From Mobula hypostoma (Eukaryota): DNA of 64,000 bases. A program made the position numbers and the translations under genes. The notes under the pieces are model-generated. The model saw only the letters and a program-made list of their open reading frames with translations, ran no database searches and was not told the DNA's origin. Below are positions 3,001 through 57,084 of this stretch, piece after piece (position 1 is the first letter of the stretch; every line of letters starts with the position of its first letter). The DNA lies in assembly GCF_963921235.1 (NCBI RefSeq), contig NC_086097.1, forward strand, positions 2,356,001 to 2,420,000. The letters run 5' to 3'.

Positions 3001-4580
3001 AAAGTAACTATGTTATAAAGGTACATATATGTCACCATATACAACCCTGAAATTCATTTTCTTGTTGGCAGACTCAATAAATCCAATAACCATAAAATAA
3101 TCACTGAAAGACTGCACCTACAGGGTGGACAACCAGTGTGGAAAAAAACAACCAATGTGTGAAAGACAACAAACTGTGCAAATACAAAAAATAAAGGAAA
3201 TAATAATACAAATAAATTACGAATAAATATCGAGACCATGAGATGAAGAGTCTTTGAAACTGAGTCCGTAGGTTGTGGGAATAATTCAATGACGGGGCAA
3301 GTGAAGTTGAGTGAGGTTATCCCCTTTGGTTCAAGAGCCTGATAGTTGAGGGGTAAAAACTGTTTGTGAACTTGGTGGTGCAGGTCCTGAGACTCCTGTA
3401 CCTTTTTCCTGATGGCAGCAGTGAGAAGGGAGTATGGCCTGGGTGGTGGGGGTCTCTGATGATGGATGCTGCTTTCCTGAGACACCATTTCATGTAGATG
3501 TGCTTAGTGAGGGGAGGGCTTTATCAATGGTGGTCTAGCCGTATAAGATTCTTCTTTTTATAAGATATTCCGTTCAAGGGCATTGGTGTTTCCATACCAG
3601 GCTGTGATTCAGCCAGTCAATATACTTTCCCCCATACATCAATAGAAATTTAACAAAGTTTTAGATTTGGCCTGACATCTTTGCAAATGCCTAAGGAAGT
3701 AGAGGTGCTGCCATGCTTTCTTCATAATTGTACTTAACAGCTGGGGCCCAAGACAGTTCCTCTGAAATGATAACACCAAGGAATTTAAAGTTGCGGACCC
3801 TCTCAATCTCTGATCCTCTGATGAGGACTGGCTCATGGACCTTTGGTTTCCTCCTCCTGAAGTCAATAATCAGCTCCTTGGTCTTGCTGACAGTGAGTGA
3901 GAGGTTGTTGTGGCACCATTCAGCCAGATTTTTAATCTCCCTTCTATATGCTGATTCGTCACAAACAAGAGAAAACCTGCAGGCGTTAGAAATCCAAGCA
4001 AACACACAAAATGCTGGAGGAACTCAGCAGGCCAGGCAGCATCTACAGAGAAGAGTACAATCGATGTTTCGGCCCGAGACCCTTTGGCAGGACCCAAAAT
4101 GTCGACTGTTCTCTTTTCCAGAGATGCTGCCTGGCCTGTTGAGTTTCTCCAGATTTTTGTGCGTGTTGCTCATTCATCACCTTTGATTCGGTCTACGACA
4201 GTGGTGTCATCAGCAAACTTGAATATGGCAGTGGAGCTGTGCTTAGCCTCACAGTGATGGAGATCGTGGAGATGTTGTTGCCAGTCTGAACTGACTGAGG
4301 TCTGTAAGTGAGGAAAACCAGGATCCATTTGCACAAAGCGGTGTTGAGGCCAGGATCGATTAGTTCTGAGGCGATGATGGTATCCTGATATACGCACCTT
4401 TCCTGTCTGGATGTATCGCTACTAGATGGTAGTCACTGAGGCAGGTTACCATGTTCTTTAGGCACTGGTAAAATTGAAGCCTGCTTGAAGCATGTAGGTA
4501 CCACCGAATGCCAAAATGAGAGATTAAAGATATCTGTAAACCTTCCAGCCAGTTGATCAGCACAGGTCTTCAGTACTCCA
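3001..4580 (-). mobile_element. Rex1/Babar LINE fragment (RT to 3' UTR), interrupted at ~3963-4167
   Basis: [11 protein letters not shown] (ORF 4170..4397), SKTKELIIDFRR..FKFLGVIISEELSW (ORF 3691..4005), HLYFLRHL; AT-rich 3' UTR shared with other copies in the window. Confidence 0.88.
3963..4167. mobile_element. Penelope pLTR-derived fold-back element with degenerate hammerhead motif
   Basis: Arm ACACACAAAATGCTGGAGGAACTCAGCAGGCCAGGCAGCATCT and its reverse complement. Flanked by imperfect direct repeat GCTGATTCGTCAC (3950-3962) / GCTCATTCATCAC (4168-4180) inside a Rex element. Confidence 0.8.
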
Positions 4581-13056: not shown

Positions 13057-13555
13057 TGTGCTGGTATTGGAGAGGGTCCAGAGGAAGTTCATGAGAATGA
13101 TTCCAGCAATAAAATGGTTACTGTATCAGTAGCATTTGATATCTCTGGGTCTGTACTCACTGGAGTTCAGAAGAATGGGGGGGGAATCTCTTCGAAACCT
13201 ATTGAATATTGAGATGGCTAGACGTTGTTTATGTGGAGAGCACATTTTCTATAGAGCATGAGCCTAGAAGCAGAGAGCACAGCCTCAAAATAAAGGGACA
13301 TCCCGTTAAAAAAGAGATGAGGAGAAATTTCTTTAGCCAGAGGGTGGTGAATCTGTAGAATTCATTGCCACAGACAGCTGAGGAGGCCAAGTCATTGCAT
13401 ATACTTAAAGTGGAGGTTGATAGATTCTTGATTATTAAGTCACAGGTTACAGGGAGAAGGCCGGAGAATGCAACTGAAAGGAATGGTGGCACAGGCCTGA
13501 TGGACCAAATGGCCTAATTCTGCTCCTATATCCTGTTGTCTTATAGTCTCATGGA
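13057..13555 (+). mobile_element. CR1 3' fragment
   Basis: LERVQRKFMRMIP; TTTAGCCAGAGGGTGGTGAATCTG; 3' UTR AATGGCCTAATTCTGCTCCTAT. Confidence 0.8.
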
Positions 13556-13587
13556 TTCGCAGATCCCCAAACACTCGTGTCAAGAAA

Positions 13588-14535
13588 GACCACAAGTTAT
13601 AGGAGCAGAATTAGGCTCTTTGGCCCATTGAGGCTGATCTACCATATCATCATGTCTGATCCATTTCCCTCCAGCCCCAATCTCCTGCCTTCTCCTCATA
13701 TCCCTTCATGCCATAACCAAACAAGAATCTATCAGCCTCTGCCTTAAATATACATAAAGACTTGGCTTCCACAGCTGCCTGTGGCAAAGAATTCCACAGA
13801 TTCACCACTCTCTGGATGAAGAAATTCCTCATCTCCATTCTAAAAGGACACGCCTCTATTCTGAGGTTGTGTCCTCTGGTCTTAAACTCTCTCACTATAG
13901 GAAACATCCTCTCCACATCCACTCTATCAAGGTCTTTCACTATTCGATAGGTTTCAATGAGGTCACCACTCATTCTTCTGAATTCCAGTGACAAACTATT
14001 CAATCCTAGAATCATTTTTGCGATCCTCCTTTGAACCCTCCCCAGTTTCAGCATATTTTTTTCTAAGATAAGGAGCTTAAAACTGCTCACAATACACCAA
14101 GTGAAGCTTCACAAGTCCTTTATAAAGTCTCAACATTACATCCTCGTCATCGAAATCATTGACGTATAACAAAAAGAAGCAGTCCCAATACAGAACCATG
14201 TGAAACACCACTAGTCACTGGCAGCCATCCAGAAAAGGTTTCCTTTATTCACACTCTTTGCCTCTTGCCAATCAGCCACTGCTTTATCCATGCTAGAATC
14301 TTTCCAGTAATATCACAGGCTCAGCTTGTTAGTAGCCTCATCTGTGGCACCTTGTCAAAGGCCTTCTGAAAATCCAAGTGCACAACATCAATCAATTCTC
14401 CCTTGTCTATCCTGCTTGTTATTTCTTCAATGAATTCTATCAGCTTTGTCAGACAAGATTTTCCCTCGAGGAAACCATGCCAGCTATGGCCCATTTGATC
14501 ATGTGCCTCCCAGTAACCTGAAACCACAACATCTG
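13588..14535 (-). mobile_element. CR1 fragment (RT and 3' end, internally deleted)
   Basis: ORFs 13650..14090 and 14321..14707 (HGFLEGKSCLT, HLDFQKAFDKVP). Confidence 0.85.
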
Positions 14536-16339: not shown

Positions 16340-16460
16340 AGCACACAAACAAGAGAAATTCTGCTTGCCAGAGTTTCAGCCTGAAAAATTGACTGTACTT
16401 TTTTCCATATCTGACTGCCTGGCCTGCTGAGTTCCTCCAGCATTTTGTGTTGCCGTGTGT
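16340..16460. mobile_element. Penelope pLTR/hammerhead-family fragment
   Basis: ACAAACAAGAGAAATTCTGC..GACTGTACT..GCCTGGCCTGCTGAGTTCCTCCAGCATTTTGTGT. Confidence 0.7.
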
Positions 16461-17915: not shown

Positions 17916-19139
17916 TGTACGGGGTCTTTTTTTTTGTGTGTTAAATTTAAAATGGCTTCTTTGTTATGTTAAATGCTGAGAGAGTCTCTAGCGAGACATT
18001 TGCTTGGGTTAATACAGATAGCAGGGTGTTATTAGCCAATGGGTATTCATGTTATCATTTTTTTGGGGTGATAATGCTGTCTCATATGACTGGGGACGGG
18101 GTTTTGGGGGGGTAGTCGGAGGAGAGACGGGGAGGACGGCGGACGGGGTTTTTGGCGGGGAGTCGGAGGACAGACAGGGAGGACAGCGGAGAAGCGGGGA
18201 GTCGGAGGGGAGGTGGGGAGGACGGAGGAGAGGTGGGGAGGACAGAGGAGAGGCGGGGAGTCGGAGGAGAGACGGCGAGGATGGTGGACGGGGTTTTTGG
18301 AGGGTCGGAGGAGAGATGGGGAGTCGGAGGAGAGACGGGGAGTCGGAGGAGAGACGGGGAGGATGGTGGACGGGGTTTTTGGGGGGAGTCGAAGGAGAGA
18401 CGGGGTTTTTGGGGGGGGAGTCAGAGGACAGACGAGGAGTCGGAGGAGAGATGGGGAGGACGGTGGAGAGACGGGGAGACGGTGGAGAGACAGGGTTTTG
18501 ACGGGGAGTCGGAGAAGAGACGAGGAGGACGGTGGACGGGGTTTTTGGGGGGAGTCGAAGGAGAGACGGGGTTTTTGGGGGGGAGTCGGAGGAGAGACGG
18601 GGAGACGGTGGAGAGACGGGGTTTTGACAGGGAGTCGGAGGAGAGACGAGGAGGACGGTAGACGGGGTTTTGACGGGGAGAACGGTGGACGAGGTTTTTG
18701 GTGGGGAGTCAGAGGAGAGACGGGGAGGATGGTGGAGAGACGGGGAGTCGGAGGAGAGACGGGGAGGACGGTGGATGTGCGAAAGGCTCCAGTTGATCAC
18801 TCCGGGTGGTCTCGAGCCTGGAGTCGACAGGATCCGGGTGGTCGTCAGGAATTGATTGAGTGCCAACAGTTGTGCACGAAGAACTTGGACTTTGATAAGT
18901 CTGGTGCCTTTTTTTTCCATTACTTCCTTTTCTGTATCGAATTTATATTAATGTCATAGACTTAGTAATATCTATAAGGTGTGCTTGGTAAAACGGACTG
19001 GGTGTGCGGGCTGATGATTGATGTTTGGGAATGATTTGGGCGGCAGTGGTGCAGCGACCGACTCAGTGGGAAGCGTTCAGGCCGGGGCTGGGTGGGATTT
19101 CCCCTAGACATATACGAGCCAATATAACTGAGCGTTACA
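17916..19139. mobile_element. Solo LTR (1224 bp) with 4-bp TSD
   Basis: Starts TGTACG and ends CGTTACA. CCAT is duplicated at 17912-17915 and 19140-19143. Cleanly interrupts a Rex 3' UTR. CpG-rich, with CCAAT boxes. Confidence 0.85.
18091..18776 (+). repeat. G/A-rich modular VNTR inside the solo LTR
   Basis: Shuffled modules GGGGAGTCGGAGGAGAGAC, GGGGAGGACGGTGGAC and GGGGTTTTT(G)n. Confidence 0.92.
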
Positions 19140-21959: not shown

Positions 21960-23551
21960 CAAATCCCATTTCCAGAAAAGTTGGGATATTTTCCAAAATG
22001 CAATAAAAACAAAAATCTGTGATATGTTAATTCACATGAACCTTTATTTAGCTGACAAAAGTACAAAGAAAAGATTTTCAATAGTTTTACTGACCAACTT
22101 AATTGTATTTTGTAAATATACACAAATTTAGAATTTGATGGTTGCAACACACTCAACAAAAGTTGGGACAGAGTGAAAATAAGATTGAAAAGTGCACAGA
22201 ATATTCAAGTAACACCAGTTTGGAAGACCCCACATTAAGCAGGCTAATTGGTAGCAGGTGAGGTATCATGACTGGGTATAAAAGTAGCGTCCATCAAAGG
22301 CTCAGTCTTTGCAAGCAAGGATGGGTCGTGGCTCACCCCTTTGTGCCAAAATTCGTGAGGGAATTGTTAGTCAGTTCAAAAGGAACATTTCTCAAAGCAA
22401 GATTGCAGAGAATTTGGGTCTTTCAACATCTACAGTACATTATATTGTGAAAAGATTCAGAGAATTCAGAGACATAGTGCGTAAAGGGCGAGGTTAGAAA
22501 CCACTGTTGAATGCGCATGATCCTCGAGCCCTCAGGCGGCACTGCCTAAGAAACCGTCATGCTACTGTGACAATTATAGTCACCTGGGCTCGGGAGTACT
22601 TCGGAAAACCATTGTCACTCAACACAGTCCGTCGCTGCATCCAGAAATGCAACTTGAAACTGTATTACGCGAGGAGAGAGCCATACATCAACTCTATGCA
22701 GAAACGCCGGCAAGTTCTCTGGGCCCGAGCTCATCTCAGATGGAGCAAAAGACTGTGGAACCATGTGCTGTGGTCAGATGAGTCCACATTTCAGCTAGTT
22801 TTCAGAAAAAACGGGCGTCGAGTTCTCCATACCAAAGATGAAAACGATCATCCAGATTGTTATCAGCAAAAGGTGCAAAAGCCAGCATCTGTGATGGTAT
22901 GGGGGTGCATCATTGCCCACGGCATGGGTGAGTTGCGTGTATGTGAAGGTACCATTGACTCTGAGGCGTATATTAGGATTTTAGAGAGACATATGTTGCC
23001 ATCAAGGCGACGTCTCTTCCCGGGACATCCATGCTCATTTCAGCAGGACAATGCCAGACCACATTCTGCACGGGCTACAACAGCGTGGCTTTGTAGACAC
23101 AGAGTGTGTGTGCTTGACTGGCCTGCTGCCAGTCCAGATCCACCTCCTATTGAAAATGTATGGCACATCATGAAGAGGAGAATCAGACAACCGAGACCAC
23201 GGACTGTTGAGCAGCTGAAGTCTTGTATCAAGCAAGATTGGACAAAATTTCCAATTGCAAACCTACTACAATTAGTTCCAAAATGATTAAAAAGTATTAT
23301 TAAAAGGAAAGGTGATGTAACACAATGGTAAACATGCCTCTGTCCCAACTTTTGTTGAGTGTGTTGCAGCCATCAAATTCTAAATTTGTGTATGTTTACA
23401 AAATACAATTAAGTTGGTCAGTAAAACTACTGAAAATCTTTTCTTTGTACTTTTGTCAGTTAAATAAAGGTTCATGTGAATTAACATATCACAGATTTTT
23501 GTTTTTATTGCGTTTTGGAAAATATCCCAACTTTTCTGGAAATGGGATTTG
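21960..23551 (+). mobile_element. Full-length Tc1 (DD34E, IR/DR type, Tzf-like) DNA transposon
   Basis: 214-bp TIRs at 21960-22173 and 23338-23551, each with AAAAGTTGGGA at outer and inner ends. TA TSD at 21958-21959 and 23552-23553. Confidence 0.97.
22321..23331 (+). pseudogene. Tc1 transposase with two in-frame stops
   Basis: MGRGSPLC.. paired-like HTH; WSDES, QQDNARPH and SPDPPPIENVW with 34 residues between D and E. TAG at 22495-22497, TGA at 23284-23286, natural TAA at 23329-23331. No frameshift. Confidence 0.93.
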
Positions 23552-32298: not shown

Positions 32299-32838
32299 AA
32301 AGAGAAAATCTACAGATCAGGTACCATCTATGGAAAAGAGTACAGTCGATGTTTTGGTCTGAGACCCTTCAGCAGGACTGAGAAAAGAAGACGGAGTCAG
32401 AGTAAAGGATGGGGGGGAGGGAGAAACACGAGGTGATAAGTGAAACCGGGAGCAGTTAGGAGGGGGGGGGAAGAGGGGTGAAGTAAAGAACAGGGAATTT
32501 GATTGGAGAAAGAGATATAGGGCTGGATAAGGGAGAATCTGATAGGACAGGACAGAAGGCCATTGAAGAAGGGGAAGGGGGTGGATGACCAAGAAAGTGA
32601 AGAGAGGTGTTAGAAATGGACCAGGTAAATTTGAGGCAGGGCGGATATTGGAGGTAAAGTTAATGAAGTCAACTAGCTCGGCATGGGTGTAGGAAGCAGC
32701 ACCAATGCAGTCGACGATATAGTGTAGGAAAAGTAGGGGAGTACCCCAGTGTAGGCTTGGAACACAGAATGTTCCATATAGCCAACAAACAGGCAGGCCT
32801 AGCTGCGACCCATGTGAGTGCCCATGGCTACACCTTTT
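32299..32838 (-). mobile_element. Penelope-like element fragment (RT piece joined to 3' UTR and pLTR with hammerhead motif)
   Basis: Minus strand KGVAMGTHMGRS*ACLFVGYME..FLHYIVDCIGAAS (PLE RT, YIDD decayed). CAGTC-CTGCTGA..AAAC-ATC-GACTG at 32343-32380. Confidence 0.85.
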
Positions 32839-37171: not shown

Positions 37172-37472
37172 AAGGGGTGATAAAACAGTGTCGAGGTATG
37201 CAGAAATGAGTTCGGTGGGGGAGGAGCAAGCTGAGACAATAGGTCGGCCAGGACAGGCAGGTTTGTGGATCTTGGGTAGGAGGTAGAAACGGGAAGTGCG
37301 GGGTGTGGGAACTATAAGGTTGGTAGCAGTGGATGGGAGATCCCCTGAGCGGATAAAGTCGGTGATGGTGTGGGAGACAATGGCCTGGTGCTCCTTAGTG
37401 GGGTCACGACCGAGGGGTAAATAAGAGGAGGTATCCGCGAGTTGTCGCTGTGCTTCGGCAAGGTAGAGGTCA
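37172..37472 (-). mobile_element. Penelope-like element RT N-terminal fragment
   Basis: YLAEAQRQLADTSSY..DPT..FYLLPKIHKPACPGRPIVSAC..TELISAYLD, typical of PLE RT; no stops. Confidence 0.92.
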
Positions 37473-37648
37473 AATCTGCAGATGCTGGAAATCCGAGTAA
37501 CACACACAAAATGCTGGAGGAACTCAGCAGGCCAGGCAGCATCTATGGAAAAGAGTACAGTCGATGTTTAGGGCCGAAACGTTGACTGTACTCTTTTCCT
37601 AGATGCTGTCTGGCCTGCTGAGTTCCTCCAGCATTTTGTGTGTGTTGC
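37473..37648. mobile_element. Penelope inverted pLTR fold-back with hammerhead cores deleted at the fusion point
   Basis: ~70-bp near-perfect arms around GTTTAGGGCCGAAAC. Confidence 0.85.
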
Positions 37649-38709: not shown

Positions 38710-40035
38710 GGCATCATGGGGGGAGATGATCTACCAGAGGGTTGCCACATCGATTGGGTCTCTGGCACTGTGGCTCGAAAGGGAAGGGGAGGAGAAGAGG
38801 ACTTTAGTAGTGATCAGGGACTCCATAGTTAGAGGAGCAGACATGGGCTTCTGTGGATGCAAGAAACACCTGGATGGTATGTTGCCTACAAGGTACCAGG
38901 GTTAGGGGGTGTCTCTAATGAGGTCTACAGCATTCTAAAGGGGGAGGGAGAGCAGCCAGAAGACTTGGTACATATTAGCACCAATGACATACGTAGAAAG
39001 ATGGAGGAGGTCCTGAAGAGAGAATTTAGAGAGTCAGGTAGAAAGCTGAGCAGCAGAACACCAGTGCCTGGGCCATGCACCAGACAGGGCAAGAATAGGA
39101 TGATTTGGCAGATGAATGTGTGGCTGAGGGACTGGTGCAGGGGGCAGGGTTTCAGATTTCTAGATCATTAGGATCTCTTCTGGGGAAGGTATGACCTATA
39201 CAAAAGGGATAGGTTACATCTGAGCCCAAGGGGTACTAATAATCTTGCTAGAACTGTTGGGGAAGGCTTAAACTAATTTGGCAGGGAGATGGGAAACTAA
39301 GTGATAGGGCTAAGGATGGGGCAGAGGCAGTGTGTAGTGGAAGGACAGGCAGATTAGGAGGCATAATTGCAGTCAGTGGGATTAGCTACAGTGTAACAAG
39401 GGGACAAAATCCAAAAGGGTACGAATACAGGACTGACGGCGTTACATTTGAATGCCTGCAGTGTACCGAATAAGTCATAGTCATACTTTATTGATCCCGG
39501 GGGAAATTGGCTTTCATTACAGTTGCACCATAAATAATAAATAGTAATAAAACCATAAATAGTTAAATAGTAATATGTAAATTATGCCAGGAAATAAGTC
39601 CAGGACCAGCCTATCGGCTCAGGGTGTCTGACCCTCCAAGGGAGGAGTTGTAAAGTTTGATGGCCACAGGCAGGAATGACTTCCTATGACGCTCTGTGTT
39701 GCATCTCGGTGGAATGAGTCTCTGGCTGAATGTACTCCTGTGCCCACCCAGTACATTATGTAGTGGATGGGAGACATTGTCCAAGATGGCATGCAACTTG
39801 GACAGCATCCTCTTTTCAGACACGACCGTCAGAGAGTCCAGTTCCATCCCCACATCACCGGCCTTACGAATGAGTTTGTTGATTCTGTTGGTGTCTGCTA
39901 CCCAGCAGACACCAGCAGGAATAAAAGTGATCTGGAAGGGTATGAACACAGGACTGATGGCGTTACATTTGAATGCAGGCAGTGTACTGAATAAAGCAGA
40001 TGATCTGGAAGTGCAGTTGGAGATTGGCAGGCATG
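38710..40035 (+). mobile_element. CR1 ORF1 SGNH/GDSL esterase remnant plus start of ORF2, split by a Rex insertion
   Basis: VVIRDSIVRG, VHISTNDI, MNVWLRDWCRGQGFRFLDH, YKRDRLHL; LHLNA..LNKADDL endonuclease start. Confidence 0.85.
39474..39918 (-). mobile_element. Young Rex1/Babar 3' fragment
   Basis: (GACTAT)n tail; RKSFLPVAIKLYNSS; GAATAA TSD at 39468-39473 and 39919-39924. Confidence 0.92.
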
Positions 40036-44835: not shown

Positions 44836-45030
44836 ACAAGTAACCTGCTGGTGGAAGTCAGTGGTTTGAGCTGATTCTGTGGAAGGAAAAGAACTTTTGA
44901 TGTCACAGGTTAGAGCCCTGCATCAGGACTTGACAATCCCTTTCCTCCTACAGATACTGCTCAACCCACTGAACTCCTCCAGCAGATAGTTTGCTGGTCC
45001 AGATTCTTGCATCTGCAGTGCCTTGTCTTT
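44836..45030. mobile_element. Older Penelope pLTR fold-back element (second subfamily)
   Basis: Arms CTGCTGGTGGAAGTCAGTGGTTTGAGC / GCTCAACCCACTGAACTCCTCCAGCAG; minus-strand AGTCCTGATGCAGGG core variant. Confidence 0.6.
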
Positions 45031-46032
45031 CCAGCTTCACCCCTCTTTACAGCCGCTACCTTCCCATTCCAGTCCCAGCCCCAATTTTGAGTCATGACCC
45101 AATCCAACAGTTCCTTTCGATGAGTTCCCCTCCATCTCAGCCCCAACCACAATATTACTTGACCTGATGAGTACCTCCAGCAGTCTGTATTAAAACCTTT
45201 AGTGAGATGCCTTGTTTCTGGGATCAATAATCTATCAAATTCAATGCAACTGATTCAACTTTTTCTGTCTTCATTCCCTTTTTGGGTGGCCCCCTCCATA
45301 CTGGCCCACAATACCACCCTTCACATTCTCCCCTCTCCCCTCTTTCACCGAGGAGAAATACGAAAGCTTGAAACCACCAGACCAAGCTCCTACCTCACTG
45401 TTATAGGTCTTTCGAAAGATCTCTTGTATGATAATGATGAACTCTTGACATTACAGTCCACTATATCATGTCTTTGTACCTTACTATCTACCTGCTCTGG
45501 ACTTACTCTGTAACTACAGCACCATATCCTACATCCTATATACACTAACAATCTACTATCTGTTAGTACCTCAATGTAGAGTACTTGTTCAGAAATGCAA
45601 CTTGCCACATAAGAATGCTGACTTTGCCGAGTCATATTTCACAATTTCAATCCCTGTATAGTATTGGAGGCTGCCACTTGACCCATCAAATATATGCCTA
45701 CTGTTAAAGACTAGCTTGAAAAGACTAGCTCTATTATGTACTTGTTTCCCTGTAAACCGATTCTCTTTAACATACCCATCAAATACCCTCTGATACTCCC
45801 AACGCCCGGCTCAACTAGGGGTAATTTACAGCAACCAGCTGACCCAGCAACACATCTGGAGGAAGCCTGATCTCCAGGGAAACCATGTGTACTCACAGGA
45901 GAAATCCAAACCTGAGACAATCACACTATCTCCAGTACAATGGTGCCACCACAATTATTCGTGGAAGTATAATCACTATTAGCTCAGTAGCACTGAGCTG
46001 GGTCAAAATCCTGGATCTCACTACCCAACAGC

Positions 46033-46585
46033 ACAAAGGGAGAACCTCCACCATTGAGATGTAGGTCCACTACACAACAACACCGGGAGCACCTCCACCG
46101 TGGAACTGACCACACAACAACACCGGGAGCACCTCCACCATGGAACTGACCACACAACACCAGGAGCACCTCCACCATGGAACTGACCACACAACAACAC
46201 CGGGAGCACCTCCACCATGGAACTGACCACACAACAACACCGGGAGAACCTCCACCATGGAACTGACCACACAACAACACCGGGAGCACCTCCACCATGG
46301 AACTGACCACACAACACCAGGAGAACCTCCACCATGGAACTGACCACACAACAACACCGGCAGAACCTCCACCATGGAACTGACCACACAACACCAGGAG
46401 AACCTCCACCATGGAACTGACCACACAACACCAGGAGAACCTCCACCATGGAACTGACCACACAACACCGGGAGCACTTCCACCATGGAACTGACCACAC
46501 AACAACACCGGGAGAACCTCCACCATGGAACTGACCACACAACACCGGGAGCACTTCCACCATGGAACTGACCACACAACACCAA
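46033..46585. repeat. Minisatellite: 13 units of 37 or 40 bp plus one diverged leading unit
   Basis: Unit CACCRGGAGMACCTCCACCATGGAACTGACCACACAA(CAA), counted from 46081 to 46579. Confidence 0.97.
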
Positions 46586-48074
46586 GGGAGGACCTTGCAA
46601 AGGTTCATTTATTTTTAAAGTATGAATGTAGTCTGCAACTGTAAGATTCGTCTTCTCCAAATTGCTACGAAACAAAGAAAACCATGGAGATCGTCAAACC
46701 CAGCCACCCCTGCACAAAAAGGGCCACATGATCAACACCCAAACCACCCTCCGCTGCATAAAAATTACTAAAAAAAAGACATGCCAAGCAGCAAGAACAT
46801 TAACCCCCAAACCCCCTCATCTTGCATGAAGATAAACTAACAAATTGCATCACAGGACAACCCAACTCCCTTCCCTCACATAAAAAAAATGAAGAAACAA
46901 TTATACCCATATGACCAATTAACCTATTAACACATATCTTTGGAATGTGGGGGTGGGGAAACCAGAGTGAACTCGCATGATCACGGGGAGAATGTAGAAA
47001 CACTTTACAGACAACAGCGGGAACATAGAAAATAGGCATGCACAACAATAGGCTCTGAATGTCATTGTTATTCATTGCAACTGATAATCTTTATAGATTG
47101 CTAAAGATAAAGGTCTTTGCTCCCAACGTCATCAAGCTACATTTTTGAAAGTAGTAGTCAATGCAGTTTTTCATTCCCACAGCATACTCCTTTTGTAATG
47201 TAGCGTGCTTGAGTTAATGGTAAATAACTGGACAGGGCAGGGCTGTCGATGGAATTAAAGATTAGAGTCATGCTCTAAAGCTGTCTCACCACCACAGGTC
47301 TGAGTGCATTCTCCCAATTCATGGCTATCGTTGCAATTATACTGTACATGCAAAGATTTCCATCAATAACGCATTTACTACTCATGTATAAAGTAAACCA
47401 CCCACTTAAAAAGACAAAAATAAACCAAGCTGAATGTAAAAGCACAAAGAAATAGTTACGATTCCACTTAAAAAGTTTTTTTTAATTCATACCTTGGAGT
47501 CAATGTGATTTGATCAGCTCTGTTGTTTTATAATCTCCAACTCGCAGGTGCTTTCTTTATCAGACACTATTAGGATTCTTTAAAGAGCAATTTATAATCT
47601 GATCTCTAACACACTACAGTCTCTTCAAAGTGATCACTGTTTGTCTGAAGTATGTTACTCATTTGGAGATGAACATCACCTGGAGAGATACACTGCATCA
47701 CCAAGGCTTTATCTTCACGTGAACCATGAAAGGATCACCCTTACCTCAGTGACAAAATTGTCATGCTTGACCTCAGGGCACTGAACCTCATTCTCCTGCC
47801 TTCTCCCCTTGATCACCCTGACTAATCAAGAACCTATCAAGCTCCACTTTAAATATACCCAATAACTTGGCCTCCACAGCCATCTGTGGCAACGAATTCC
47901 ATAATTCATCACCTGCAGGCTAAAGAAATTCCCCTTCATCTCCATTCCAAATAGATACCCCTCTATTCTGAACTGCAGGTGATAGACATACATTTATTTT
48001 GTTCTTTAATGAATATACCAGGAAGCAGCGTTTAAACAGATGTTTTCAATGGATATCAGGAATATTTTCTTCAT

Positions 48075-48408
48075 CGGGGGTATAGATATGTAAATACAAG
48101 CAAGCTTTTTCCACTGAGGTTATAACCAGAGATCGTGGGTTAAAAGTGAAAGGTGAGAAGTTTAAGGTGAACATGAGGGGAGGGTCACTCAGGAGGGTGA
48201 TGAAAGTATGGGATGAGCTGCCAGCACAAGCACTACATGCGAGCTCAATTTCGACATTTAAGGGAAGTTCGGACTGGTACACGGATGGAAGGGCTATGGC
48301 GGGCGATGGTCGGTGCAGGTCCATGGGCATAGGCAGTTTAAATGGTTTCGGCATGGATTAGATGGGCTGAAGGACCTGTTCCTGTGCTATATTTCTCTTA
48401 CTCTATGA
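48075..48408 (+). mobile_element. CR1 3' fragment
   Basis: KGEKFKVNMRG..VWDELP..ASSISTFK; same subfamily as 9950-10380. Confidence 0.8.
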
Positions 48409-49357
48409 CCGTACATTATTTTCCAGGACAAAGTCTGGTCTCCCCCAAGTTCATCCAGTTGTTTTCAATATTTGATTTCCCTTTTGTTGAAATTTCTGAC
48501 TCCCACACCCCCCACCTAATTAAAGCTTCTTCTTTTTACTGCATTCTCACCTCAGGAAAGCCACAGATTATTTCAGTGACCACACCTCAAAGCACACTCA
48601 GGTTTGGCTGTAAGAGTAGTGACATTATCCATGAACTAAACAGGATTTCTGGGTCAGTAACCGAAGTCTGAGAATTTTGCACCTAATACCAAGGGCGCTG
48701 TGAACCAGTCCACCCAAGCAAAATTCCTGGGAACTAGCAGTCTAATGAAATGAGGAGATGGTAAAGTAAATCGAGAATCTAAGGAAATAGGGCCCTTGTT
48801 GTACTGTGCGCCAGCAATGTGGTGTCCAATTATTAACACGCTAAATTAAAAAGAAATAGAATTCATGAAATTACAATTCGCTCCAGGTTTACTGGAGTAT
48901 AGAAAGGTGAGCTTACAAAAAGAGATCATCAAACGAGAACTGGTTGTTACTTGGTCAATTCTCACCATACCATGATTACACACACAAGACACGTGACACA
49001 ATCCATGACTGGATTGTGGGTGACATTAAGGTAAGAAGATAAAGAAAGGCAATATCCGGTTACTGGAAATGCAGATATCAGATTACAGGTTGGCAAATAC
49101 AATTATACCTACCTCTGATCAGTATAACCACACACACACCAAACTGTAAGAACACTGGGCATAGAGCAGTTACTGCTCAGGTAACATTCCAATTTACAGT
49201 ACTGACCCCAAGCAGCAACTGGATTCTTGCTTAGCAGAACAGCTCCATTTAGTAACCAAATAAGAGTCTGATTCTGTGGTGATGTACCACTTTACCTCAC
49301 TTTTGTCCTACCCTAGGCTTTGTCTTTGCTTTCCTAGGCTGTCCCAACAGACCTCAC

Positions 49358-49891
49358 CACAACCTTTAACATCTGCCGGACGATGCTGAGGATGTTCTAC
49401 GAGTCTGTGGTGGCCAGTGCTATCATGTTTGCTGTTGTATGCTGGGGCAGCAGGCTGAGGGTAGCAGACACCAATGTTATCAACAAACTCATTTGTAAGG
49501 TTAGTGATGTTGTGGGGATGGAACTGGACTCTCTGACAGTGGTGTCTGAAAAGAGGATGCTGTCCAAGTTGCATGCCATCTTGGACAATGTCTCCCATCC
49601 ACTACATAATGTACTGGGTGGGCACAGGAGTACATTCAGCCAGAGACTCATTCCACCGAGATGCAACACAGAGCGTCATAGGAAGTCATTCCTGCCTGTG
49701 GCCATCAAACTTTACAACTCCTCCCTTGGAGGGTCAGACACCCTGAGCCAATAGGCTGGTCCTGGACTTATTTCCTGGCATAATTTACATATTACTATTT
49801 AACTATTTATGGTTCTATTACTATTTATTATTTATGGTGCAACTGTAATGAAAACCAATTTCCTCCAGAATCAATAAAGTATGACTATGAC
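49358..49891 (+). mobile_element. Young Rex1/Babar 3' fragment
   Basis: ORF 49383..49754 MLRMFYESVVASAIMFAVVCWG..; tail AATAAAGTATGACTATGACT. Confidence 0.93.
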
Positions 49892-50004
49892 TGGAAGGTT
49901 CTGTGATGGTGTGAAGTGTAAAAGTGATTCAGTGACAATCAAAAACACAAGAGTTTCTGCAGATTCTGGAAATCCAGGGCAACACACACAGAATACTGGA
50001 GGAG

Positions 50005-50042
50005 CAATCAATGTTTCAGGTCAAGACCCTTCATCAGGGCTG
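50005..50042 (-). ncRNA. Minimal type-I hammerhead ribozyme motif (degenerate)
   Basis: CAGCC-CTGATGA-AGGGTCTTGACCT-GAAAC-ATT-GATTG. Confidence 0.65.
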
Positions 50043-50061
50043 GCTCCCATTCCTGGCTTTC

Positions 50062-50099
50062 CGGTCCTGATGAAGGGTCTCGGCCTGAAATGTTGTCTG
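50062..50099 (+). ncRNA. Minimal type-I hammerhead ribozyme motif (degenerate)
   Basis: CGGTC-CTGATGA(50067-50073)-AGGGTCTCGGCCT-GAAAT-GTT-GTCTG. Confidence 0.65.
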
Positions 50100-50277
50100 T
50101 TTATTGATTTCCATAGCTGCTGCCTGACTTGCTGAGTTCCTTCAGCGTTTTGTGTGTGTTGTTGCAAATCAACATTGCATAGTGAACAAATACCAGAATG
50201 AAGGGTCGTCCTTGAGGTGAAAATAGTTACTGCAGAGTAGAGAGAAGCAATAAGCCGGAAAGCACTGACGTATGGAA

Positions 50278-50781
50278 TAGTCATATTTTATTGATCCCGA
50301 GGGAAATTGGTTTTCGTTACAGTTGCACCATAAATAATTAAATAGTAATAAAACCATAAATAGTTAAGTAGTAATATGTAAATTATGCCAGGAAATAAGT
50401 CCAGGACCAGCCTATCGGCTCAGGGTGTCTGACCCTCCAAGGGAGGAGTTGTAAAGTTTGATGGCCACAGGCAGGAATGACTTCCTATGACGCTCTGTGT
50501 TGCATCTCGGTGGAATGAGTCTCTGGCTGAATGTACTCCTGTGCCCACCCAGTACATTATGTAGTGGATGGGAGACACTGTCCAAGATGGCATGCAACTT
50601 AGACAGCATCCTCTTTTCAGACACCACCGTCAGAGAGTCCAGTTCCATCCCCACATCACTGGCCTTATCAATGAGTTTGTTGATTCTGCTGGTGTCCGCC
50701 ACTCTCAGCCTGCTGCCCCAGCACACAACAGCAAACATGATAGCACTGGCTACCACAGACTCGTAGAACATCCTCAGCATC
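50278..50781 (-). mobile_element. Young Rex1/Babar 3' fragment
   Basis: ORF 50412..50807 nearly identical to 49383..49754. Confidence 0.93.
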
Positions 50782-51491
50782 TTACTCTTTAATTGCCCCC
50801 ACTTCACACATACAAAAAGACAACAGTATCTCAGATATTTCCCAGATCGGTAAATGTTCCTCTCTTTACCACTGCTGCATGACTGGCCAACTATTTACAG
50901 AATTGTGTGTTCCAGTTCTAGGAAGTCAGACAGCTTTGGCACAAGTTTACCCTTTAATTACACTTGACACTGTAAACATGAACATAGAGATTAATACTGA
51001 AGAGACCCATCCAGTACCAATCATCCTCATTGTAACTCGAGTCCTGCTTCCTGCTTGAGAGGGAGCAGTGAAACAAGGCTCCCTTCTTAACGACAAACAA
51101 TACACATCACAATGGGTCTGTCTATCTGAACATCAGATCCAGCATGGTGTCCCAGCAATTCAAACTCTGGGGACACTGAAGGGTTGAGATTTGGGTTTTC
51201 TTTAAGAGAATTGCACTGTAAGGAAGGTGACATAAGTGTCCAAACCAGATTCACATGGTTATTGCATGATAACATTTGAGATTTTCCATCACCCAGGATG
51301 GATATCCAGTTTCTCATTGCTACTATCAGGTACAGGAGCTTGAAGACACACACTCAACATTTCAGGAACAGCTTCTTCCAGTCCGCTATCAGATTCCTGA
51401 ATGGATAATAAACCCAACAGCACTACCTCATGATTTTTTTTAAAAACTCTCTTTTTGCTCAACTTACTTAATTCAATTTTTTTTATATATG

Positions 51492-51815
51492 CAGTAGATT
51501 CCAGTTAATTAGGCACAAATTGGGACCAGTGCATTTTGGACCAGTTGAGCAGCTGCCCCAATTAGCCAAAGCTTCATGAAAATAATTAAGTAGTATTTTT
51601 AAAAAAGCCAAACTGAGTAAGAAATTATGTATTAAAATGGAATACGGAACAACCAATAGTCCCATGGTGCTATAAAACTGGGTACTAGTTCCTAATAGAA
51701 ATCAAAGGAGGAATTCATCCAGCGTATACAATGAACAAAATTGAGGCAGACACTCAGTGCGGATACCGGATTGACTTCATACAATGCTATTGACAATTGT
51801 ATTGTCCAAATCTTC
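51492..51815. mobile_element. One end of a Tc1/mariner-pogo-type non-autonomous element
   Basis: Starts CAGTAGATTCCAGTTAATT after a TA-rich flank, with repeated subterminal AATTRG motifs. No partner TIR seen. Confidence 0.5.
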
Positions 51816-52229
51816 ACCACATGCTGGACCGTTGTGCCTCCTTTGTAATTACATCAATATGTTGGGTGCAGGATAGATCTGCAGATCTCAGCAGCTTGGA
51901 AGTGCTCACCCATTCCACTCCACTGCTGATCCCTTCATGAGGACTGGTGTCGTGTCCCCATATTGGTTGGCAATGGAAACTCAACACCAGAATGAGGCTC
52001 TAACCATGCAGCCCAACATCCACCAAGGAGCCAATCATTAATGTAGTAGCACAGTTAAAAGAAAATAATCCAAGAGACATCGTCTCCACTCCCAGTACAT
52101 TTACTGAGTGTGCATGCGCCCTTTCAACAGGAAGCCCAATTTTGTTGACTAATTTGAGAGACCGAAAGTAAAAACACTTGAAATAACATTTTTGTCTGAG
52201 TCCTGTTATTTATATCTTGCACAGCTTAA

Positions 52230-56148: not shown

Positions 56149-56163
56149 CGCACTTCTCCTTAA

Positions 56164-56597
56164 GTCATAGTCATACTTTATTGATCCTGGGGAAATTGGT
56201 TTTTGTTACAGTTGCACCATAAATAATAAATAGTAATAGAACCATAAGTAGTTAAATAGTAATAGGTAAATTATGCCAGGAAGTAAGTCCAGGACCAGCC
56301 TATTGGCTCAGGGTGTCTGACCCTCCAAGGGAAGAGTTGTAAAGTTTGATGGCCGCAGGCAGGAATGACTTCCTATGACGCTCAGTGTTGTATCTCGGTG
56401 GAACGAGTCTCTGGCTGAATGTACTCCTGTGCCCACCCAGTCCATTATGTAGTGGATGGGAGACATTGACCAAGATGGCATGCAACTTAGACAGCATCCT
56501 CTTTTCAGACACCACCATCAGAGAGTCCAGTTCCATCCCCACAACATCACTGGCCTTACGAATGAGTTTGTTGATTCTGTTGGTGTCTGCCACCCTC
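56164..56597 (-). mobile_element. Young Rex1/Babar 3' fragment
   Basis: ORF 56300..56599; (GACTAT)n tail. Confidence 0.92.
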
Positions 56598-57084
56598 ATT
56601 ACCCCCCCCCCACCTTAAATGCGTGTCCCTTGGTATTAGACATTTCAAACTTGGGAGAAAATATTGTCTGTCTACTCTATGTCTCATAAATTTATAAACC
56701 TCAATCAGATCTCCCCTCAGCCTCCACCGCTCTGGAGAAAACAAGCCAGGTCTGTCCACCCTCTCATTACAGCACCTGCCCCACCGTGGAGCTCACTGGG
56801 AAAATGGAGTGGGCACAGTTACCAGGAAGAATGACCTGCACCAGTTACAATCCCTTTCCCCAAGCACAAATTAACTACTGATCATTTGCTTTACTCCTAA
56901 GCAAAACTGAAATGACACAGACTTGTTGAAAAACTACCTCCAAGGCAGTCTGGAATCACTCCTGCCTGCACATTCCAGTCCTACCAAGTCAAAACTAGAG
57001 AAACATTTGCCTCCACTCAGTAATGGCAATGCCAACTTCTACATTCGGGCCACAAAAGTTAGCGCAACACTACAACAGAAGTTT

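Follow-up and report, generated by a model that had tools for sequence, protein, structure and literature searches.

The 64,000-nt stretch of the Mobula hypostoma genome analysed here (contig NC_086097.1, positions 2,356,001 to 2,420,000, referred to as the window in the rest of the text) carries near 50.0 kb a ~220-bp fold-back element that contains no ORF and consists of a head-to-head pair of truncated pseudo-LTRs (pLTRs), with one hammerhead ribozyme motif on each strand. In all likelihood, this element is an insertion that was dead on arrival and has since decayed, derived from the 3′ end of an endonuclease-positive Penelope-like element (EN+ PLE) that is present in high copy number and probably belongs to the Penelope/Poseidon type. 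The presence of one hammerhead per strand would then be a by-product of the insertion.

Anatomy of the fold-back element

The first-pass annotation had described the focal locus as an ORF-less inverted pLTR pair, a description that our analysis supports, although the two arms are unequal, the left one having lost ~37 nt internally and carrying a tail of ~37 nt (Table 1). The arms are mutually identical at 50 of 63 positions. No direct repeat of the unit was found within positions 48000–52000; the arrangement is a head-to-head pair and not a head-to-tail tandem. The tail-less end at which the right arm stops is shared with the short arms located at 4168, 20890 and 37648. Contigs from other copies run on past 50161 into the tail in all four contig runs (706–1343 loose ends per run), indicating that the family continues beyond this position and that the right arm is a copy without the tail. 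The hexamers flanking the element obtained a duplication score of 6.0, which was reached by 6% of 400 random site pairs. Since none of the contigs listed in the four runs spans the whole element, its junction is attested by the assembly alone.

Table 1. Coordinates of the focal element, its predicted hammerhead motifs and two supporting loci (window positions)
Feature	Positions	Strand	Remarks
Left arm	49943..50043	-	5′-truncated pLTR with tail; ~37-nt internal deletion just 3′ of the hammerhead
Tail extension, ~37 nt	49943..49979	-	Left arm only; from alignment
Junction spacer	50044..50057		3-bp mini-hairpin; origin unmatched among other window copies
Right arm	50058..50161	+	5′-truncated pLTR stopping at the tail-less end TGTGTTG
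Candidate target-site duplication, left (AATCAA)	49937..49942		6/6 match with 50167–50172; weak
Candidate target-site duplication, right	50167..50172		Weak
Hammerhead motif, plus copy	50062..50099	+	Core intact; pair 10.1-11.1 is G-U; stem I with a U.U mismatch; stem III with U-G; cleavage predicted after 50094
Hammerhead motif, minus copy	50005..50042	-	Core intact; pair 10.1-11.1 is G-U; stems I and III each with a C.A mismatch
Supporting locus	32300..32837	-	Broken PLE RT segment 32837–32590, pyrimidine-rich 3′ region, then hammerhead pLTR 32378–32317
Supporting locus	37175..37648	-	Inverted short arm, pLTR, partial tail, directly into PLE RT segment 37471–37175

The repeat family across the window

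Repeat loci were defined by a BLAST search of positions 49891–50280 against the 64-kb window, which placed the repeat at ten loci, near 4.0, 16.4, 20.9, 31.9, 32.3, 37.5, 41.7, 50.0, 59.7 and 60.1 kb. Six of them (4.0, 16.4, 20.9, 31.9, 37.5 and 50.0 kb) are head-to-head inverted pairs and the other four are single arms. The tail, corresponding to the last ~25–45 nt of the repeat, is found on one arm only in every inverted pair, and in five of the six the other arm ends at or within a few bases of TGTGTTG, the arm at 31.9 kb ending earlier. The junctions differ among all six pairs, and both hammerhead cores are whole in the focal pair only. The hammerhead-bearing repeat was very abundant in all four contig runs, and strand-switch joints were located at several places in the contigs.

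Target-site duplications were clear at two of the eight loci tested, 3949/4167 (12 of 14 nt) and 16334/16458 (8 of 8 nt), whose scores were reached by 0.5% and 1.25% of random pairs (n = 400), respectively. Five of the eight loci, all scoring 5.5 or less, showed nothing beyond chance. An apparent duplication at the 37.5-kb locus was rejected as spurious because the element runs on into RT sequence there.

Two of the inverted pairs have particular shapes. At 16345–16452, the left arm is reduced to ~25 nt of tail and an exact 8-nt direct repeat flanks the pair, while 37175–37648 is a nearly perfect fold-back (z = −18.8) whose long arm goes from the tail to the middle of the PLE RT frame, open over 99 codons, and then ends. 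Long hairpins also occur at 13498–13630 and 44845–44985, with weak matches to microRNA models; both were absent from the BLAST results for the hammerhead repeat and are possibly fold-backs of other repeats.

Link to Penelope-like elements

RT remnants adjoin the pLTR at two of the ten loci. The remnant 32837–32590 is frameshifted and precedes the pLTR (tblastn with P0008, E = 2.4e-16), and the remnant 37471–37175 continues directly from the tail at 37.5 kb (tblastn with P0016, E = 2e-31, 59.6% over 99 aa). The repeat is thus found both after and before ORF sequence, as expected for the pLTR of a tandem PLE. These sequence comparisons identify the repeat as the pLTR of an endonuclease-positive PLE with one minimal hammerhead per pLTR, in agreement with the earlier assignment of the repeat to Penelope-like pLTRs and of the motifs to PLE-type minimal type I hammerheads, and the parent element was probably of the Penelope/Poseidon type. 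No intact parent element was seen in the window.

A 40-residue piece of the remnant at 32.6–32.8 kb matched six proteins with phmmer, four of which are true RT fragments; P0002 and P0004 were discarded because repeated stretches, 10 and 4 in number and belonging to Fn3 or unknown domains, had produced their matches. One RT fragment led to 14 longer relatives, the named ones coming from Rhincodon, Stegostoma, Hypanus, Chiloscyllium and Pristis, which pointed to a cartilaginous fish as the most likely host. The shark and ray relatives of the remnants, including P0008, have RT plus GIY-YIG, and an RT with a C-terminal GIY-YIG is the domain order given as defining canonical EN+ PLEs (10.1101/2021.04.23.441226). 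P0016 has the DKG motif named as diagnostic in the same article. P0014, from Stegostoma, ends in a read-through peptide resembling the translated hammerhead at 32370; tblastn matches of its low-complexity tail near 18.1–18.9 kb were compositional and were set aside.

Other searches returned little. Pfam matched no family in the single-frame RT remnant, the Atlas comparison of the RT remnant was uninformative (best 0.78), and the four PDB matches of P0016 (E = 0.46–0.5) are at the level of chance. A degenerate 33-nt motif had no match in viral contigs and none in metagenome contigs.

Within the remnant at 32300–32837 (minus strand), the RT core jumps to the 3′ region, the rest of the RT and the endonuclease being missing, and a further deletion lies between hammerhead and tail. 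PLE RT sequence is also contained in P0003 and P0011, public shark and ray gene models annotated as a SLAM-like protein and a protein with a divergent kinase domain; P0011 has GIY-YIG-like sequence as well, and the PLE parts of both are probably mis-predicted exons.

The two hammerhead motifs

CTGATGA..GAAA cores had been reported on both strands, and both were found where they had been placed. In the plus motif, the 5′ strand of stem I (50062–50066) is followed by CTGATGA (50067–50073), an extra A (50074), stem II (50075–50078 with 50083–50086), GAAA (50087–50090), TGTT (50091–50094, H17 being 50094) and the 3′ strand of stem I (50095–50099). The minus motif runs from the 5′ strand of stem I (50042–50038) through CTGATGA (50037–50031), GAAA (50017–50014) and CATT (50013–50010) to the 3′ strand of stem I (50009–50005), with a candidate cut after 50010. 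CUGANGA and GAAA cores and an NUH triplet are present in both copies, the triplets being GUU and AUU. Each motif has an NUU triplet, a 5-position stem I, no stem III loop and one extra, unpaired A between positions 9 and 10.1 (50074 and 50030). The short stem II that had been noted is 4 bp long in each copy. The proposed GAAAC, however, is found in the minus copy only, the plus copy reading GAAAT, and the proposed separation of ~20 nt holds for the ends of the stems I (19 nt apart) but not for the cores (29 nt apart).

A strict minimal-core descriptor found exactly two cores in the 64-kb window, namely these two. In 200 dinucleotide shuffles, the same descriptor found a mean of 0.49 cores, and 9.5% of the shuffles held at least two. 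Lone cores are thus modest evidence, since shuffled windows often yield them, and the weight of the motif pair comes from its context and not from the cores alone. The two motifs form a 35-nt inverted repeat that is 83% complementary (folding z = −10.9), and a degenerate 27-nt pattern of the family had five matches in the window versus none in 100 shuffles. The covariance search against Rfam suggested in the first-pass annotation matched no hammerhead family, neither among its 14 window-wide matches (E up to 5) nor among its five local ones (E up to 10), presumably because stem III is missing. Its microRNA and plastid matches reflect hairpins, scored below the gathering thresholds and were disregarded.

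Decay and predicted state of the ribozymes

Taking the majority of the window copies as reference, the plus motif differs at four of 38 positions and the minus motif at eight; three and five of these differences, respectively, are of the CpG type, which bears out the CpG decay that had been proposed. The G10.1-C11.1 pair has become G-U in both focal copies (C is found in 6 of the 11 window rows at that column). Likewise lost is the 15.2-16.2 palindrome, which would form the dimeric stem III: it reads U-G in the plus copy and C-A in the minus copy versus C-G in the window majority. Four of the five stem I pairs remain in each focal copy, and CpG decay accounts for most of the pairs lost from the two motifs. 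In all four contig runs the family-majority letter is A at 50063 and at 50096, which restores the stem I pairs of the plus copy; in run X1 the majority letters at these two positions hold 93% and 95% of summed contig depth, a measure of depth and not of copy number. Counted over 14 rows and 62 cells of decayed paralogues with ragged edges, 77.4% of stem I and II cells were paired versus 73.6% in shuffled data (33/500), and four pairs were changed on both sides (14/500; score, 5/500).

The predicted probability of the hammerhead fold in a monomer was 0.003 for the plus copy, 2e-05 for the minus copy and 0.018 for the window majority. Double-hammerhead energies, which like all the folding energies given here are secondary-structure estimates that ignore tertiary contacts and protein help, were −0.4 kcal/mol for plus/plus, +10.2 kcal/mol for minus/minus and −18.5 kcal/mol for the window majority. 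In a plus/minus heterodimer (−4.2 kcal/mol) only one pair in 22 would be broken, and the majority motif itself lay 13.8 kcal/mol above its cofold minimum. In a full transcript of either strand, one motif is in sense orientation and the other in antisense, and the core was predicted to be unpaired with a probability of at most 0.002. Pairing of the sense motif with the antisense copy would thus block the fold without supplying a partner for a dimer, and this transcript geometry would be a more decisive argument for inactivity than the energies. Against inactivity, all catalytic core letters survive in both copies, and H17 = U is described as common in natural min-HHRs (PMC4209133). On these predictions, the focal copy most likely does not cleave; cleavage by the parent motif was probably weak, occurring in a dimer or with help from the element's protein.

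Neighbourhood and age of the insertion

In organisms B, C and D, contigs span the right flank and extend 28 letters into the right arm; as this is below the 31-letter rule, a shared insertion is a hint only. Those of C and D depart from the stretch at 50279 and run on for another 150 letters, which hints that the right LINE piece may be younger than the PLE pair. X1 contig cover is zero over 50232–50290.

The element is flanked, tail to tail, by two LINE-like 3′ pieces (49382–49892 and 50277–50781, 388 nt apart), putatively of the Rex1/Babar type. They are 94% identical over 508 nt and 98% over 320 nt, and could pair into a hairpin of ~500 bp enclosing the PLE pair; further copies lie at 39473–39903 and 56163–56598. 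Pfam found no family in the flanking LINE frame. We rejected the reading that the flanking pieces are the two arms of a single larger palindrome: within the intervening 388 nt, self-complementarity is confined to the PLE pair, and the two additional LINE copies in the window also speak against it. Elsewhere in the window, positions 22498–23286 (plus strand) hold the remnant of a Tc1-type transposase (DDE_3, E = 1.2e-12; HTH_Tnp_Tc3_2, E = 6.9e-08), and tandem-repeat tracts with long low-complexity open frames on both strands occupy 18009–18959 and 45984–46693.

Origin of the inverted pair

The insertion of the focal pair could have proceeded as follows. The element's protein would nick the target, reverse transcription would begin at a tail-defining internal site, and synthesis would halt just past the hammerhead. 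The new strand would then fold back or switch template, so that the same pLTR would be copied again in reverse, as far as the tail-less end, and the product would be joined in, perhaps with a short duplication. Later erosion by CpG deamination and the ~37-nt deletion would represent neutral decay. Because the six junctions differ and only one pair keeps both cores, each pair would have been made at its own insertion from a pLTR with a single hammerhead. No arm among the 14 aligned has its start at the cut, a result in keeping with an uncleaved template; the supplied ranges limit three of these starts (focal right, 32.3 kb and 60.1 kb). Counting against this explanation are the weakness of the focal duplication, the unexplained 14-nt spacer and the lack of an intact parent in the window. 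The first-pass annotation had invoked an ancestor able to self-cleave on either strand. Such an ancestor is not needed, since one pLTR copied twice during insertion would suffice, and it is disfavoured by the differing junctions of the six window pairs and by the sequestration of the motif predicted for read-through RNA.

Put more fully, this ancestor would be a non-autonomous fold-back family that propagates itself, each strand having a functional hammerhead, so that its units would be cut from transcripts of both polarities and mobilised by PLE proteins. The two intact cores, symmetric about a short spacer, the abundance of the repeat in all four contig runs and the existence of non-autonomous PLE derivatives with hammerheads (10.64898/2026.07.22.740005) would all suit such a family, but we regard it as highly improbable: none of the five other inverted pairs keeps the focal junction or both cores, strand-switch joints occur at several places in the contigs, the antisense arm sequesters the core, and the retrozymes described in that article are head-to-tail tandems. 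Two independent pLTR fragments inserted side by side in opposite orientation, or a later local inversion, could account for the 50/63 identity of the arms, the weak duplication and the spacer between them. This is nonetheless very unlikely, as the one-arm tail and the standard tail-less end recur in other pairs, six abutting pairs among ten loci are improbable as independent hits, and the arm differences are largely of the CpG type. The strong hairpin (z = −10.9) and the contigs of three other organisms that enter the right arm from the same flank by 28 letters might suggest co-option by the host, as a hairpin RNA or a regulated ribozyme. Such a role is hardly credible given the absence of compensation, the mismatches in both stems I, the partial deletion of one arm and the density of repeat remnants in the neighbourhood; moreover, 28 letters fall short of the 31-letter threshold for a bridging contig.

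The insertion mechanism that we favour leaves room for a role of the hammerhead that would be structural and independent of cutting, its hairpins and palindromes acting as the site where RT stalls and folds back and so shaping the inverted insertions. Among the ten arm starts fixed by an inverted junction, nine fall within the 38-nt motif or on its upstream edge, the remaining one is 23 nt downstream, and none coincides with the cut; the 37.5-kb junction is located in a near-palindrome spanning stem II and GAAA. Ten arms from one window cannot distinguish such stalling from an ordinary bias towards short products, very short arms being hard to detect, and we consider the idea rather doubtful. 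The role of PLE hammerheads in general is called unclear in 10.1101/2021.04.23.441226. The focal locus is one relic among many copies and matters little alone, but the family is a useful resource, since a genome rich in fold-backs would allow a direct count of junctions at hammerhead hairpins versus junctions at the cut.

Comparison with known systems

The arrangement described here is already known, inverted pLTR pairs arising from a PLE insertion pattern in print. An inverted, 5′-truncated copy with a one-sided tail of 30–40 bp has been described for EN+ PLE insertions (Craig et al. 2021, 10.1101/2021.04.23.441226), head-to-head inverted pLTRs with 8–10 bp duplications have been ascribed to self-priming (Arkhipova et al. 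2013, PMC3846280), and both the inverted copy and the one-sided tail are listed among the known peculiarities of PLEs (PMC8969392). As in the canonical complex EN+ PLE insertions of these accounts, the pairs in the window have head-to-head inverted pLTRs, a tail on one arm and, at some loci, short duplications, and the focal junction has a mini-hairpin. Unlike them, the focal element has no ORF between its arms, measures ~220 bp in all and shows a duplication that is a candidate only. Among the titles listed in our search of openly accessible papers on cartilaginous fish, none dealt with fold-backs of the hammerhead PLE family, which is weak evidence of absence.

The definition and consensus of min-HHRs date from 2014, in a report that also describes dual motifs on opposite strands ~100–700 bp apart and a min-HHR at the 5′ end of a truncated element (PMC4209133). 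The focal motifs share with the min-HHRs of that report the CUGANGA core, one extra base before stem II, short stems I and II, the lack of a stem III loop, and U-rich 5′ and AU-rich 3′ flanks. They differ from its dual motifs in that the focal cores are only 29 nt apart, and from its consensus in that both copies have lost the G10.1-C11.1 pair and the 15.2-16.2 palindrome. Supplement file 2 of that report contains none of the words shark, Callorhinchus and Leucoraja.

Non-LTR retrozymes, reported from one chondrichthyan genome, resemble the focal element in being non-coding, derived from PLE pLTRs and equipped with a type I hammerhead (Li et al. 2026, 10.64898/2026.07.22.740005). As described there, they are head-to-tail tandems of hammerhead units, unlike the single head-to-head pair found here. 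The protein of Poseidon from Anolis carolinensis (PAc) nicks AT-rich DNA and initiates reverse transcription from two internal positions, which delimit the tail. The PAc hammerhead, within which the ORF starts, cuts only with the protein and is not required for in vitro insertion (Frangieh et al. 2024, PMC11167929). As in the PAc system so described, two alternative 3′ ends define the tail of the repeat in the window, the hammerhead lies in the pLTR, and an uncleaved RNA was apparently copied.
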